A stretch of 64,000 nucleotides of DNA, from assembly GCA_041640655.1 (NCBI GenBank), contig JBEPZV010000004.1, positions 46,815-110,814 on the forward strand, given 5' to 3'. Below, in pieces: positions 1-30,707 of this stretch. This stretch comes from a bacterium (GTDB lineage: Bacteria > Acidobacteriota > Blastocatellia > HR10). Position numbers and translations under genes: made by a program. The number at the start of each line of letters is the position of its first letter. Positions within the stretch are counted from its first letter, which is position 1. The notes beneath the pieces are model-generated. The model saw only the letters and a program-made list of their open reading frames with translations. It did not search any database and was not told the origin of the DNA.

Positions 1-217
1 TGCCACAGTCTCCTCCAGTCGGGCCAATCGCTCCTCGGCCCGTCGTTGTGCCTCGGCCAGGGCCGCGACGATCTCCTCCAGTTGAGCCATGCGCTCCTCC
101 AGCCGGGTCACGCGCTCTTCCGTACGGTGTTGCGCTTCGGCCAGAGCTGCCACAGTCTCCTCCAGTCGGGCCAACCGCTCCTCGGCCCGTCGTTGTGCCT
201 CGGCCAGGGCCGCGACG
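1..217. repeat. Intragenic direct repeat: 70-nt copies at 1-70 and 148-217
   Basis: 69/70 identical; the offset of 147 nt equals 7 x 21 nt (seven heptads). Confidence 0.9.
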
Positions 218-420
218 GCTTCTTCCAGCCGGGTCATGCGCTCTTCCACCCGACCTTGCGCTCCGACCAGGGCCTCGATCACCTTGCTGAGGTCTCGAAC
301 GATTTGAGGCAAGGACAAAAGTTCCTCCGTCAGCAACACCCGCCGGAGCTCCTCACGCCACTCCGGATGTTGCTCCAGGAGTCGCAAGAGATCCTGAAAA
401 TCCGCGCTCGCGAAAGACAT
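1..420 (-). CDS. Heptad-repeat coiled-coil protein (DUF3782/PD-(D/E)XK-associated type), N-terminal part; runs off the window edge
   Basis: Not in the ORF track. Manual translation from ATG at 420: [41 protein letters not shown], followed by repeats of RLEE(T/A/I)[16 protein letters not shown]; no stop before position 1. Confidence 0.8.
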
Positions 421-491
421 ATTCGCTCCAATTATCCGAGCGCTCGGCGACTTCCGTCAAGGAAGGAGGGCTTCCTTCCCCGCAGAGGACC

Positions 492-1514
492 TCAGGGGAT
501 CACGGCGACTTTAATCGCCTCACCGGCGCGCAGGAGCCGGAATCCCTCTCCGATGGCCTCCAAATCCACGCGATGGGTCACCAGTTGTTCCAGTGGAGGG
601 AATCCCGCCTCCAGCATACGCACGACTTTGGGAAAAGCCGTGCGCTGGATGTACGACCCCAGGACGGAGATCTCGTGTCGGGTGATCCAGTATTGGTTCA
701 GCTCTCGCTCAGCACGCAGATCCATGCCGAAGAGGATCACGCGCCCGCCGCGTCGGACCAGTTGAAGGGCTTCCGGCAGGAGCGTCCCCACGGCGTCCAC
801 GACGATGTCGGCACCCAGGCGCGTGCGTGTCATGACCTCCCGTGCGATGTCGTGGACATCGGGGTTGAGGGCTGCGTCGGCTCCCAGGCGTTCGGCCATG
901 CGGCGCCGAAATTCAGCACGCTCGACCACGCAGACCGGATAAGCTCCAGCGGCTTTGTAAAGCATCAGAAACATGAGTCCGATTGGGCCCGCACCCAAGA
1001 TCGTGACGCTCTCGCCGGGGACGAAGGCCGATCTCTCGAAGGAATGAAGCACGCAGGAGAACGGCTCGGCGAGCATCGCTCGATCCGGGGGAACCTGCGG
1101 GCTGATCTTATGCACGGCCTTAGCCGGAGCGACGTTCCACTCGGCTAGCCCGCCGTGTCGAAAGATCCCCAGCGTCGTCATGTTCTCGCACATATTGGAG
1201 AACCCCAGCCGACAGTATTCGCAGAAACCACAAGTGACGTTGGGATCAATCACCACGCGGTCTCCCGGATGGAGGTGGCGCACGCTGGGACCGGTCGCGA
1301 CCACTGTGGCGACATATTCGTGGCCAAGGATCGTTCCCGGCGTGGCTGGATGTCCCGGGGGAACGGAGAGGATGTGCAGGTCCGTCCCGCAGATGCTCGC
1401 GCGTTCTACCTTTAAGAGCACATCGTCTTCGTTTCGGACCTCGGGGGAGGGGCGAGATTCTACCCCCCATTCCCCGTCACCGTGAAAGACGACAGCCCGC
1501 ATTGTTTCTCTCAT
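492..1514 (-). CDS. Zinc-dependent medium-chain alcohol/polyol dehydrogenase (sorbitol/threonine dehydrogenase-like)
   Basis: Motifs ICGTDLH, GHE, structural Zn CGFCEYCRLGFSNMC and Rossmann GAGPIG. ATG at 1514 overlaps the upstream stop (ATGA). Confidence 0.9.
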   Translation of the reverse strand: MRETMRAVVFHGDGEWGVESRPSPEVRNEDDVLLKVERASICGTDLHILSVPPGHPATPGTILGHEYVATVVATGPSVRHLHPGDRVVIDPNVTCGFCEYCRLGFSNMCENMTTLGIFRHGGLAEWNVAPAKAVHKISPQVPPDRAMLAEPFSCVLHSFERSAFVPGESVTILGAGPIGLMFLMLYKAAGAYPVCVVERAEFRRRMAERLGADAALNPDVHDIAREVMTRTRLGADIVVDAVGTLLPEALQLVRRGGRVILFGMDLRAERELNQYWITRHEISVLGSYIQRTAFPKVVRMLEAGFPPLEQLVTHRVDLEAIGEGFRLLRAGEAIKVAVIP

Positions 1515-27509: not shown

Positions 27510-27592
27510 AAAGCTGGCCAAAGAGAAAATGGGCTCAACTCTCTGTTGAAGCTCATTGTCAACCCACGCCCTCCTCATCCTTGGAGCTTTTT

Positions 27593-27620
27593 ATCATATC
27601 GCGGATCTCCACCTTGTCAA
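27593..27620 (-). promoter_or_regulatory. Sigma70-type promoter for the lacI-iol operon
   Basis: TTGACA (27615-27620), 16 bp, TATGAT (27593-27598) on the minus strand. Confidence 0.7.
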
Positions 27621-27634
27621 GATGGAAAAAATCA

Positions 27635-27662
27635 TTGACATTGCGAGGAATTCGGCTATAAT
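27635..27662 (+). promoter_or_regulatory. Sigma70-type promoter for the TPR-HTH/peptide cassette
   Basis: Perfect consensus TTGACA-N16-TATAAT. Confidence 0.8.
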
Positions 27663-27709
27663 TTGCAGTGTCTTTGGTCAAAAATCGTGAACGATCGGTG
27701 AAGGAGGTT

Positions 27710-29134
27710 ATGAGGACGACGAAGGTTCGAGAGATCGCGCTTTTGGAGCACGCCGTCTTCTCCGGTCGGTTTCGAGAGGCCGAGCGGCTGGCCGAGGAGT
27801 TCTCGCCGACCGATTTGCGGTCGGCGGCCGCGAAGGCTCAGGTTTTGATCTACAAGGGGGAGTTGGAGGAGGCCGGAGCGCTTCTGGAGGCCTTCGAGAA
27901 ACGGCTCACCGAAGCGAACCTCAAGGAGGCGGCCGAGTTCGGTCTGGCGAAGGCCGAGTGGCATTATTGGCGGGGCGAGTATGAGGAGGCAGAGCGGCAG
28001 GCGCAGGTGGTTTTCGGGATTTACAGCCTGAATCGCGATCGCTTCGGGCTGGCGCGCGCGCTCTACGTGCTCGGGCGGGTGCATCGGCGTCAGGGGGATT
28101 ACGAGCGGGCGCGACAAGAGATGCTTCAGGCGCTTGAGGAAGCTGAAGCGGTCACCGATCGGCCGACGGGATTTCTGCTTGGGCTCATCATGTTCAATCT
28201 CGGCGTGATCCATTACTTCCTGGGGGATCTCGCGCGCGCGGAAGAGGAGTTGCTGGCGGCGATCCGGGCGCTGGAGGACGAGCGGGGGCGGTACTACGGC
28301 AATGCCCTGAACTTCTATGGGACGTTGCTCATCGGGAAGGGACTGTATGAGGAGGCAGCGCGGATCATCCAGTCGGCCTACGAGTGCTTGTCCGAGAGCG
28401 CCTTCTTCGACGATTTGGCCCATGCGACGAACAATCTGGCCTATGCCTGTCTGCGCATGGGGCAATTTGAGCGCGCGTCGCGACTGCTCCATGAGAGCTT
28501 GGAGTTGCGCCGTCGGTCGAAGGACATCGCCGGAGAGTCGGCGACGCTGGAGCTCTTCGGGCGGCTTCGTTATGAGCAGGGACAACTGGGGGAGGCCGAA
28601 CAGATCCTGCGGCAAGCGATCGAGCTGGCGGAATTGGGGAAGAACCCTCATGAGAAGGCGGTCGCCTTGATCACCTTGGGGCGCGTGCTCATGGCTCAGG
28701 GGCGTCTGGACGAAAGCCAGCGGGCGCTTGAGGAGGCTCTTGATCTGGCCGTGCAGTTGAAGAACAAGTCGCTGCAGGCGGAGGGTCACGCCTATTTGGC
28801 GGAGCTGTGGGTCTATCGAGGCAACGGGATGCAGGCGTTGGAACATCTCAGGCGGACGAAGGCGTTCATCAATGGGCATCGCGATGCATATCTGCTCGCG
28901 CAGATTGAGCGCATTGAGCACTTGGTCCAGCAGCACCGGATCAAGGCCGAAGAGGGGGTCTTTATGATCCGCGGCAGCTTCCTACCGACTTGGCGGGAGG
29001 CGCATGAGATGTTGGGGAGGTTCCTTCTGGCGGAGGCGCTGCGGCATGCCGGTGAGAATCAGACGAAAGCCGCTGAGCTGCTCGGCGTCACTAAAGCCTA
29101 TATCACCATGCTGCGGAAGAAGTACGGGATCTGA
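27710..29134 (+). CDS. TPR-repeat protein with C-terminal Fis-type HTH (putative peptide-sensing regulator)
   Basis: At least 7-8 TPR-like repeats of about 40 aa (e.g. ALYVLGRVHRRQGDYERA, ATNNLAYACLRMGQFERA). C-terminal ALRHAGENQTKAAELLGVTKAYITMLRKKYGI. AAGGAGG RBS before ATG 27710. Confidence 0.88.
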   Translation: MRTTKVREIALLEHAVFSGRFREAERLAEEFSPTDLRSAAAKAQVLIYKGELEEAGALLEAFEKRLTEANLKEAAEFGLAKAEWHYWRGEYEEAERQAQVVFGIYSLNRDRFGLARALYVLGRVHRRQGDYERARQEMLQALEEAEAVTDRPTGFLLGLIMFNLGVIHYFLGDLARAEEELLAAIRALEDERGRYYGNALNFYGTLLIGKGLYEEAARIIQSAYECLSESAFFDDLAHATNNLAYACLRMGQFERASRLLHESLELRRRSKDIAGESATLELFGRLRYEQGQLGEAEQILRQAIELAELGKNPHEKAVALITLGRVLMAQGRLDESQRALEEALDLAVQLKNKSLQAEGHAYLAELWVYRGNGMQALEHLRRTKAFINGHRDAYLLAQIERIEHLVQQHRIKAEEGVFMIRGSFLPTWREAHEMLGRFLLAEALRHAGENQTKAAELLGVTKAYITMLRKKYGI

Positions 29135-29153
29135 TGAAGAGGAGGTGCGATCT

Positions 29154-29522
29154 ATGAAGAGGGTACTCGCGGTCGCGTTCATCGTGTTCATGCTCGGGAG
29201 TTTCACCCTCCCGGTGCGGGCGGGGGTCACAGCGGGTGGAAAGCCCTATGTGCCGGGCGCTGATCTCCCACTTGGAGGCGTCACGGCCGGAGGCCGACCG
29301 TTCATTGGCGGTGGCGGGGTCTTCACACCGACAGGATTCGGCTTGGGTGCTCAGTTCTATGATGACGAGGGATGGGATGCCGCATCAGATCCCTACGGGG
29401 GCATCGGTGGAGGAGCAGATCTCGGATGGGCACCCTCGTGGTCTTGGTGGGGATGGGGAGCGTGGGGCGTTCTCGACATCCTTTTCGGCATCCCGATGGC
29501 GTTCCTCTTCGCTATGTGGTGA
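29154..29522 (+). CDS. Small secreted Gly-rich protein (122 aa), putative signalling propeptide
   Basis: GAGGAGGT RBS. Sec signal peptide MKRVLAVAFIVFMLGSFTLPVRA, repeated GVTAGG(K/R)P(Y/F), and a Trp-rich hydrophobic C-terminus. Confidence 0.8.
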   Translation: MKRVLAVAFIVFMLGSFTLPVRAGVTAGGKPYVPGADLPLGGVTAGGRPFIGGGGVFTPTGFGLGAQFYDDEGWDAASDPYGGIGGGADLGWAPSWSWWGWGAWGVLDILFGIPMAFLFAMW

Positions 29523-29529
29523 GCGCCGT

Positions 29530-29559
29530 AGGGGGAATTCGCGAGAGCGAATCCCCCCT
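29530..29559 (+). terminator. Stem-loop after the peptide gene (probable terminator, between convergent genes)
   Basis: AGGGGGAATTCGC-GAGA-GCGAATCCCCCCT with one mismatch; weak U-tract. Confidence 0.6.
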
Positions 29560-29621
29560 GGAGCTTCTGCAGGGAGCCGTGGGATCTTTCGAGCGTCCCG
29601 CCGTGGGCTTCTCCCTGCTGC

Positions 29622-30707
29622 TCAGCCGGCGGTCTTCAAGCTGAAGGTGAACTCCGAACCTCTTCCGGGGTCGCTTCTGACAGTGATCTCCCCTCCGTGC
29701 AATTGGACGAGATGTTTCACAATGGCTAGGCCGAGGCCGCTGCCTCCCGTTTCCCGAGATCGAGATTTCTCGCCCCGATAGAAGCGCTCAAAGATACGCG
29801 GTTGGTCAGCCGGAGGAATGCCGATCCCGGTATCCGTGACGGCGACGAGGACGCGTTCACCGGAGCGGCGCGCCGTGATCCCCACATATCCTCCGGGCCG
29901 ATTGAACTTGATGGCGTTATCCAGGAGATTTTGCAGAATCTGCGTCAAGCGGAAGGGGTCGGCTAAGACTTGTATGTCCTCGGGGACGTCGTTCGCGATC
30001 GAGATGCCGCGCTCTTGCGCCTGAGGCCGGATGAGAGCTAAGACGTCTTCGACGAGGGCGCGAAGCGGAAGGGCTTCGAGCGAGAGGGCGATGACGCCCG
30101 ATTCGATCTCCGCCAGGTCGGTGATGTCGCGCACCAGGGCATGGAGGCGTTGGGCCTGTCGAAAGAGGCCCTCCAGGCATCGGCGCGCGTGCTCGGGATC
30201 CTCCAGGCCCACCTCCTGCAGGGTTTCCACATAGGCCAGGATCGCCGCCAGTGGCGTACGCAGTTCGTGCGAGAGATTGGCGAAGAAATCGCGCCGCACG
30301 CGCTCCAGATGCTCCAGCGCGGTGATCTCCACGAAGACGCCCAGAGCCGCCTGCGGTGCTTCAGAGGCGAAGCGAAGAGGAGTGATGGTGACATGGAACA
30401 CGCGGGGCTCGCCGCGCTTCAGCTCAAAGCGCAGCTCACGGGATGTCCCCAGATCGAGTGCCTCACGGAATCCCTCGTGCAATGCGGGATCGCGGGTGAG
30501 GTCAATCAGTCGAAGAGGGCGGGAGGGGATCGGAGGCGGGGGGAAGATGGATTCGGCCGACGGATTTTGAACGAGGACGGTCGTCTCCCGATCCACGATG
30601 AGCAGACCTTCGCGCATAGCCGCGAGGACGGCCTGCCACACCGGATGGGGCGAGCGAACTAACTCCCGAAGGAGATCGCGATCGGCGCTCTCGGTGGCGG
30701 GTGTCAC
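29622..30707 (-). CDS. phoR: Phosphate regulon sensor histidine kinase (PAS-HisKA-HATPase), no transmembrane segment
   Basis: ANLSHELRTPL H-box, NLLDNAIKF, DTGIGI, IFERFYR and GGSGLGL. Last gene of the pst/phoU/phoB operon. Confidence 0.88.
   Translation of the reverse strand: MTPATESADRDLLRELVRSPHPVWQAVLAAMREGLLIVDRETTVLVQNPSAESIFPPPPIPSRPLRLIDLTRDPALHEGFREALDLGTSRELRFELKRGEPRVFHVTITPLRFASEAPQAALGVFVEITALEHLERVRRDFFANLSHELRTPLAAILAYVETLQEVGLEDPEHARRCLEGLFRQAQRLHALVRDITDLAEIESGVIALSLEALPLRALVEDVLALIRPQAQERGISIANDVPEDIQVLADPFRLTQILQNLLDNAIKFNRPGGYVGITARRSGERVLVAVTDTGIGIPPADQPRIFERFYRGEKSRSRETGGSGLGLAIVKHLVQLHGGEITVRSDPGRGSEFTFSLKTAG

Follow-up and report, generated by a model that had tools for sequence, protein, structure and literature searches.

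A conserved two-gene cassette of a TPR-HTH regulator and a small exported protein in Blastocatellia, a candidate convergent peptide receptor-ligand system

The DNA analyzed here (the window) is a stretch of 64,000 nt from contig JBEPZV010000004.1 (assembly GCA_041640655.1, positions 46,815 to 110,814 of the forward strand) of a hot-spring acidobacterium in the class Blastocatellia (HR10). At window positions 27635-29559 lies a compact plus-strand unit, here called the cassette, in which a gene for a 474 a.a regulator (P0001), built of tetratricopeptide repeats (TPRs) and ending in a helix-turn-helix (HTH), is followed after a 19-nt spacer by a gene for a 122 a.a exported protein (P0002; Table 1). 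A sequence-only reading had described the locus as a perfect TTGACA-N16-TATAAT promoter, a 474 a.a TPR protein ending in an HTH, a 19-nt gap, a 122 a.a open reading frame (ORF) with a strong ribosome-binding site (RBS) and a Sec signal peptide, and a hairpin, oriented opposite to both flanking operons in a host with an outer membrane. We recovered each of these features: all 12 consensus positions of the promoter match (27635-27662), the protein hits TPR_12 and TPR_MalT with the HTH at residues 428-472 of its AlphaFold2 (AF2) model, the RBS of the small gene reads AGGAGG and its signal peptide is evident from sequence features, the hairpin region (29515-29580) folds at −32.3 kcal/mol (z −2.74), and both flanks lie on the minus strand. 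The host genome encodes three Omp85-family genes and is therefore that of a diderm. The cassette is a real, conserved, and unnamed two-gene module, and a candidate convergent peptide receptor-ligand system in a diderm phylum.

The regulator matched the Pfam models TPR_12 (9e-28, 96.7 bits; cut-off 30.1) and TPR_MalT (1e-20, 74.6 bits; cut-off 45), and TPR models matched 40/40 aligned members of its family. Its match to HTH_8 (PF02954; residues 439-461, E 0.011, 15.8 bits) fell under the 22-bit cut-off, and no HTH_3 or XRE match was present in P0001 via Pfam. Given that 34 of the 40 aligned members matched HTH_8 at E ≤ 0.01 (best 7.9e-7), the Fis-type HTH is, as judged by these profiles, solid at the family level. 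The AF2 model, computed from 40 sequences, was of high confidence (predicted local distance difference test (pLDDT) 91.6, predicted template modeling score (pTM) 0.84) and places a beta hairpin (residues 411-420) before the HTH; asparagines occur in the TPR helices at N163, N198, N201, N241, and N242. The best structural matches of the model were peptide-bound Rap receptors, with NprR also matched, and Foldseek placed generic TPR solenoids (LGN, designed CTPR, and OGT) at the top. We regard the Rap likeness of the predicted structure as a resemblance and not as proof of kinship. In profile comparisons against the PDB, the best 60 of 141 matches comprised CTPR, kinesin light chain (KLC), LGN, OGT, AfsR, and MalT, with no RRNPP chain among these 60. 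The absence of RRNPP proteins there and the C-terminal position of the Fis-type HTH fit the earlier suggestion that such a system was independently built with a reversed domain order.

The TPR-HTH family is small and nameless in Pfam and NCBIfam. The regulator was found in 12/12 genomes of the order, usually as three paralogues, and in a sample of 401 genomes across the phylum (only four candidates scored per genome) matches at E ≤ 1e-25 were confined to the same order and to one additional family in the class. When 1.84 billion representatives (50% identity clusters) were searched with a profile, the best 150 matches included approximately 18 full-length family members and five fragments, after which giant TPR proteins predominate. 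The record titles of the relatives name Blastocatellia or Acidobacteriota metagenome-assembled genomes and 'Bacterium HR08/HR10'. We also noted a 551-kb contig (L051) titled 'uncultured Clostridia bacterium', which carries a receptor 81% identical to P0001; the title probably reflects a mislabelled bin. In the literature, we found no description of a pair of a TPR + HTH_8 protein and a small ORF in Acidobacteria.

The small protein reads, in order, as an MKR n-region, a hydrophobic core, VRA|G, GVTAGGKPY, the linker VPGADLPLG, GVTAGGRPF, a Gly/Trp-rich stretch, and a hydrophobic helix, such that the first of two copies of a nonapeptide motif would begin at the mature N-terminus; the alanine before the predicted cleavage site (A23) is invariant in 17 partner sequences. 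Its AF2 model (pLDDT 51.6) shows two terminal helices and no fold between them. The small ORF lies outside known families, with no match in Pfam or NCBIfam and no usable match in the ESM Atlas. Eight homologues were found in the database (67-97% identity); among 301 genomes of the class, P0002 occurs only in the window's own family, in 7/7 other genomes there and 0/293 elsewhere. By codon differences within the genus, no part of the small protein is more constrained than the motif region: summed over 15 pairs from six genomes, which are not independent pairs, it shows 177 synonymous against 79 non-synonymous differences, compared to 64/143 in the signal peptide, 215/153 in the middle, and 76/146 in the tail. 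The motif region alone can still be aligned between genera. All signal-peptide partners retain a hydrophobic tail that ends in an aromatic or aliphatic residue. When the entire genome was translated in six frames (6.25 million residues), the motif was present at two sites only, both in the small protein. Several classes of exported or modified product were considered for P0002 and set aside: a lipoprotein (no Cys after the signal peptide), a PEP-CTERM or other sorting tail (no basic C-terminal cluster), and an outer-membrane beta-signal (aromatic spacing i, i+3, not alternating), all three judged by eye, and a precursor of ribosomally synthesized and post-translationally modified peptides (flanks without a maturase).

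Table 1. Features of the cassette and of the related 30-codon gene (window coordinates unless a contig is named).
Feature	Position	Strand	Basis or remark
Sigma-70-type promoter, TTGACA-N16-TATAAT	27635-27662	+	12/12 consensus matches
RBS GAAGGAGG of the regulator gene	27700-27707	+	Read from sequence; ends 2 nt before ATG 27710
TPR-HTH regulator gene (P0001, 474 a.a), clade A of a small Blastocatellia family	27710-29134	+	Translation, Pfam, AF2 model
TPR superhelix, residues 1-410, ~10 helix pairs, groove-type N163, N201, N241, N242	27710-28939	+	AF2 model for helix pairs
Fis/NtrC-type three-helix HTH, residues 428-472	28991-29125	+	AF2 model; HTH_8 matches in the family
RBS AGGAGG of the small gene, within the 19-nt spacer	29140-29145	+	Read from sequence
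Small exported protein gene (P0002, 122 a.a)	29154-29522	+	Translation; ATG at 29154
Signal peptide, residues 1-23, VRA before G24	29154-29222	+	Sequence features only; helix 2-16 in AF2 model
Motif copy 1, GVTAGGKPY, residues 24-32, starting the predicted mature part	29223-29249	+	
Motif copy 2, GVTAGGRPF, residues 42-50	29277-29303	+	
C-terminal hydrophobic aromatic helix, residues 103-122, last residue W; possible membrane anchor	29460-29519	+	AF2 helix 103-121, low overall confidence
GC-rich hairpin separating the small gene from the convergent kinase gene	29530-29559	.	Fold
30-codon gene, MELW...LDAGVSHGG	L009 contig C40, 7277-7366	−	

The pairing of the two genes is conserved well beyond the genus. 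Downstream of each of the 12 orthologues of P0001 in the order, which come from three families and show 48-100% identity, lies an ORF of 105-126 a.a at a distance of approximately 20-135 nt, and a partner ORF is also present at 12/12 further A-type metagenome loci, of which two are truncated by contig ends. This bears out the expectation that homologues of the regulator would be consistently followed by a short signal-peptide ORF with a lineage-varying motif. These partners share a signal peptide with Ala at −1, then the motif, once or twice, where the mature N-terminus is predicted, a middle that is disordered or of low complexity, and a hydrophobic tail, which ends in an aromatic residue in the 12 partners of the order. 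The motif takes the shared form x-x-[T/S/G]-[H/A/M]-[G/T/A]-G-[K/R/G]-P, realized as GVT[A/M]GG[K/R]P[Y/F] in the genus, GQTHGGRPF in the sister genus, REGHTGRPG and RESHAG[R/K]P in the second family, and GDTHGGGP in the third, to which the metagenome loci add RETHTGKP; only A23, G29, and P31 are invariant across the order. In a quick maximum-likelihood tree of 51 receptors, built without near-duplicate metagenome loci and without L095, which has stop codons, the A clade forms one branch (support 100) with a partner in 16/16.

The paralogous receptors fall into two further clades, B and C. The clade-B paralogue of the window's own genome (L009), 35-40% identical to P0001, lies on contig C40 (7563-9026, minus strand) and is followed approximately 200 nt downstream by a 30-codon ORF of the form MELWLLILFAFYRFFxQFVNxLDxGV[S/G][H/Q/N]GG, which ends in a motif related to the A-type one. 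This ORF has a strong RBS (AAAGGAGGA), its conservation ends at the stop codon, and synonymous differences exceed non-synonymous ones in 11/15 pairs of six genomes (equal in one, fewer in three). It occurs in six genomes and six metagenome loci, and it holds the single instance of GV[S/G/T]xGG before a stop in the six-frame translation described above. Receptors with the 30 a.a peptide form one branch of the 51-receptor tree (support 100; partner in 11/11). The other clade-B receptors have signal-peptide partners carrying GDGHTGHR, two to three copies of NDSHGG, or NESHSAR, and in every partner form the motif starts at precursor residue 24-27. No motif-bearing small ORF was found within 1.5 kb of the clade-C receptors, which are followed by a short-chain dehydrogenase or by an unrelated ORF that reads like RNase HII (by reading only).

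Several neighbors of these paralogues are recorded here as side observations. On contig C40, the 30-codon gene is followed on the same strand by a hemerythrin-domain gene and a TonB-dependent-receptor-like gene. At two sister loci, L075 and L080, a promoter-like TTGCCT-N17-TATAAT lies approximately 60-130 nt past the receptor stop and is followed by a stem-loop, GAAAACCCG...CGGGTTTTC (read from the alignment); since both precede the 30-codon gene, it may have its own promoter and leader hairpin there. The clade-C paralogue of L009 (13024-14451, minus strand) is flanked by an M28 peptidase that has a PDZ domain and by a short-chain dehydrogenase, with a FecR-domain protein and a ThyX-like ORF nearby.

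Whether the motif is recognized by the receptor is addressed by their joint variation. Among the 11 receptors of the 30 a.a peptide clade, which have 254 variable columns, peptide residue 27 (S/G) partitions perfectly with one clean two-state receptor column (H/Y), the sole other disjoint column being hypervariable; a twelfth row, L078, also fits. The H/Y column corresponds to H238 of P0001, which lies in a helix A (residues 233-249) one turn before N241 and N242. Both traits require five changes on the receptor tree, and among 120 two-state columns the H/Y column alone needs five changes (two columns need four); in 4/4 phylogenetically independent pairs, the receptor residue shifts in the same direction as the peptide residue. 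Family-wide, residue 238 is H in 12/12 receptors whose motif has T at position 3 and in 10/11 with S, while those with G have Y (five), N (two), or H (one). The groove-type asparagines follow the presence of a partner: N163 is kept in 30/30 partner-bearing receptors, N201 in 28/30, N241 in 29/31, and N242 in 30/31, and the five partnerless clade-C receptors have none of the four.

Two smaller cases add to this pattern. The peptides of the sister receptors L075 and L080 differ (GVSHGG and GVGQGG, respectively), and the receptors differ at 52 codons in residues 131-280 (23 synonymous, 29 non-synonymous), at none in residues 1-130, and at eight in residues 281-474; the downstream 420 nt are near-identical, with approximately six of ten substitutions in the final seven codons of the gene for the peptide. 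The pattern resembles that of a specificity module being exchanged or turning over rapidly. In clade A, the change of Ala to Met in the peptide (GVTAGG to GVTMGG) arose twice, each time with a change of V166 to G in the receptor, one turn after N163; the receptor also changed at residues 287, 383, and 407, and with two events only this association is weak. The computed support for recognition of the motif by the receptor is suggestive but not conclusive.

Our preferred explanation, to which we give about an even chance, is that the cassette is a two-gene peptide-receptor module, RRNPP-like in its working and independently built (convergent). The precursor would be exported and cut by signal peptidase I, and the motif-bearing N-terminal part would be trimmed to short peptides of approximately GVTAGG[K/R]P[Y/F]. 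These peptides would then re-enter the cytoplasm, perhaps via one of three Opp/Dpp-type binding-protein systems (the genome has three SBP_bac_5 (OppA/DppA-type) genes, with nothing that ties them to the cassette), and would bind the asparagine-lined concave groove of the TPR domain. The bound peptide would alter the action of the HTH on DNA, probably including the cassette's own promoter, in a role that could be either the measurement of cell density or a private feedback on export or envelope state. A broader and more tentative proposal, which we consider possible though somewhat improbable, is that hot-spring Blastocatellia have intracellular pheromone receptors independent of RRNPP, the TPR-HTH_8 regulators, which would sense short peptides derived from the precursors encoded beside them, with the paralogous pairs acting as separate channels whose specificity diversifies by matched changes of groove and peptide residues, as in pherotypes.

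A number of observations weigh against the peptide-receptor explanation. Structurally, Rap lies only approximately 3 Z above LGN, MalT, and APC subunits, and all TPR solenoids resemble each other; by sequence, the repeats are of the KLC/LGN/CTPR (TPR_12) type, whose consensus already contains asparagine. The earlier suggestion that Asn-bearing repeats hint at peptide binding stands in part: the asparagine helices are real, but the cited motifs are also general TPR_12-type consensus. The suggested RRNPP-like layout fares similarly, in that the exported partner ORF and the Rap-like model support it, but a partner of 105-126 a.a with a C-terminal helix is atypical of RRNPP propeptides; this length and the kept hydrophobic helix suggest a membrane-anchored protein instead of a freely released propeptide. 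Known Sec-type RRNPP pheromones lie at or near the C-terminus, while the candidate here is at the mature N-terminus, and any peptide that was released would need a route through or around the outer membrane. The C-terminal hydrophobic helix, the N-terminal motif position, and the outer membrane are the features off the RRNPP pattern that keep rival explanations alive.

The co-variation itself has limits that count the same way. The H/Y column was picked out of 254 variable columns, a sign test on the independent pairs yields p = 0.125 (with four pairs, 0.05 is out of reach), and the strongest co-variation comes from the paralog clade and not from the window cassette. The L075/L080 pattern would fit a recombined block as well as selection, the two being inseparable because many of the changes are synonymous. 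The family-wide rule for residue 238 has exceptions (L024, G with H; L084, S with A), and the groove-facing position of residues 166 and 238 is inferred from helix periodicity and from known TPR_12-type and RRNPP grooves. Further, four of the 20 B-area rows have no recognizable partner ORF, one of these having a flank of 409 nt only.

One of the two main rivals is that the TPR-HTH protein senses another cytoplasmic ligand or partner and that the small gene is its co-transcribed target, encoding a disordered periplasmic protein, anchored at the C-terminus, that is no ligand at all. We consider this rather unlikely, although regulator-target operon linkage is common, the C-terminal hydrophobic helix is kept in all signal-peptide partners, and the whole 122 a.a protein is 67-97% conserved within the genus. 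It leaves unexplained why two receptor clades each have a related motif at the same position while the rest of the partner differs, why S/G and H/Y switch together, and why the asparagine ladder is lost exactly in the partnerless clade; moreover, the 30 a.a partner is a hydrophobic segment plus a hexapeptide and nothing else. Less probable again, in our estimate, are secreted effectors with the TPR-HTH protein as their dedicated regulator, either Gly/Trp-rich membrane-active (bacteriocin-like) peptides or His-Gly metal-binding periplasmic proteins, an explanation we hold to be very improbable. The mature part is indeed Gly- and Trp-rich with a hydrophobic tail, and most motif variants have His then Gly (THGG, SHGG, GHTG), which recalls Cu-binding HGG units. 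However, the His is replaced by Ala/Met in 11/11 listed clade-A partners of the genus and by Gln/Asn in 8/11 peptides of the 30 a.a form, the Trp-rich segment is not kept outside the genus, the flanks lack immunity, ABC-exporter, maturase, and metal-homeostasis genes, and the co-variation of receptor and motif goes unexplained.

All of the evidence linking receptor and motif would fit equally well the other main rival, a cis-acting tether or export sensor. Here the TPR domain would meet the motif inside the cytoplasm, in the unexported precursor or, for the 30 a.a form, in a cytoplasm-facing tail, and the regulator would be held or released by export or membrane state. Such an arrangement would involve no extracellular signalling and would resemble the TPR chaperone/co-activator pairs of type III secretion or membrane-sequestered regulators; it needs neither outer-membrane passage nor re-import, and it suits the placement of the motif directly after the export segment in every form. 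It also suits the 30 a.a partner, whose cleavage by signal peptidase I is unlikely because its n-region is not positive and its −1 residue is K, L, or N. The A-type partners, on the other hand, show the classical n-h-c layout of a signal peptide, in which the Ala at −1 is invariant, and the motif should therefore be cytoplasmic only briefly; a duplicated motif makes better sense as a means of raising the dosage of a released product, and we know of no precedent for a TPR-HTH protein acting in this way. On balance, we judge the tether unlikely.

If the broader proposal of independent pheromone receptors is correct, the cassette would represent genuine peptide-based cell-to-cell signalling with a cytoplasmic receptor in an outer-membrane bacterium. 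If the system is a convergent one in Acidobacteriota, the design of a receptor with an adjacent propeptide would have evolved more than once, the question would arise of how a peptide signal exits and re-enters across the outer membrane, and an abundant, poorly understood, and mostly uncultured phylum would gain a tractable, sequence-defined ligand-receptor pair. The co-varying residues (peptide S/G and receptor H/Y) provide a precise and cheap handle on specificity.

The surroundings of the cassette are less conserved than the pair. One flank comprises a LacI-type regulator, IolB, and a PfkB kinase, and the other a PhoR-like PAS histidine kinase, an OmpR-type response regulator, PhoU, and an ABC ATPase. 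Neither iol nor pho genes adjoin the A-type cassette at the loci of the sister genus and the second family (L023, L025, and L026). The divergent upstream ORF in these three loci reads like an extracytoplasmic function (ECF)-type sigma factor, by reading only (about 400-1020, minus strand, in L025/L026); in L023, the ECF-like ORF (183-743, minus strand) is separated from the cassette by a 47 a.a hydrophobic ORF (1161-1304, minus strand). Because the A-type neighbors differ in the sister genus and second family, only the two-gene pair itself is syntenic.

Promoter-like sites number two in the region, against a mean of 0.3 in 50 shuffles. The cassette promoter is kept in 7/7 genus loci, with similar sites in 3/5 more distant loci scanned and a near-consensus one, noted by eye, in a fourth. 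The second site is an opposing promoter-like TTGACA-N16-TATGAT (27593-27620, minus strand; 11/12) directed at the LacI-type gene, and the −35 boxes of the two promoters stand back to back as TGTCAA-N14-TTGACA, an arrangement kept in 7/7 genus loci. Inverted repeats in 27540-27720 were limited to 6-nt ones, and the near-palindrome ATCGTGAACGAT in the leader, with three occurrences in the genome, is not kept outside the genus; no operator is claimed. The hairpin downstream of the small gene lacks a T-run, and a terminator scan of the region returned 0 sites.

One metatranscriptome run contained contigs 95-99% alike over parts of both cassette genes. These contigs are assemblies in which DNA carry-over is possible, and prove neither a transcript nor transcript ends. 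We noted among such data a 1079-nt contig from a sediment library, 95-99% alike, which covers 29044-29800 and so runs from the end of the regulator gene through the complete small gene and the hairpin into the 3′ end of the convergent kinase gene. RNA contigs do not cover 27578-27705, a gap that carries no weight as evidence.

Among known systems, the closest in layout are the RRNPP(A) systems (Rap-Phr, NprR-NprX, PlcR-PapR, and AimR-AimP), which likewise combine a cytoplasmic TPR receptor with a co-oriented gene for a small Sec-type precursor, and in which the peptide variants of each lineage track the receptor variants. The duplicated candidate peptides of P0002 also have a counterpart, given that tandem-duplicated pheromones inside RRNPPA propeptides are documented in two sources (PMC11343458, PMC9765709), with Rap-Phr of phages phi3T and phi105 as examples in the former. 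The differences are equally marked. The HTH of the cassette regulator is C-terminal and of the Fis/NtrC type, whereas RRNPP receptors have an N-terminal XRE-type HTH (PlcR, NprR, PrgX, Rgg, and AimR) or a three-helix bundle (Rap), and the cassette partner is longer, with a C-terminal hydrophobic helix and the motif at its mature N-terminus. The host is a diderm acidobacterium and not a member of Bacillota or one of their mobile elements, to which RRNPP(A) is treated as belonging in PMC10075063, PMC9765709, and PMC12700828; one large RRNPP(A) screen covered only Firmicutes and viruses. Given that domain order and taxon differ and that no sequence kinship is seen among the best 60 profile matches, the cassette should not be filed as an RRNPP member.

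A second likeness concerns the C40 paralog instead of the window cassette. In the SHP layout, a hydrophobic peptide ends in an Asp-led C-terminal octapeptide closing with GG, and the clade-B partner on contig C40 is likewise a 30 a.a hydrophobic peptide whose sole polar part is the C-terminal D-x-G-V-[S/G]-x-G-G, although the receptor domain order is unrelated to that of Rgg-SHP and PrgX-PrgQ, systems in which the pheromone comes from the C-terminal residues of a short, leaderless hydrophobic peptide. At the level of the repeats, P0001 shares the Asn-bearing helix-A consensus with the peptide-binding TPR_12-type domains of eukaryotic LGN/Pins and kinesin light chain and with the sensor TPR domains of MalT and AfsR, and in LGN and KLC this consensus lines a concave groove that holds extended peptides. 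MalT and AfsR carry ATPase modules, unlike P0001 (via Pfam), and none of these proteins is fused to HTH_8 or paired with a gene for a small exported partner, as the cassette regulator is.

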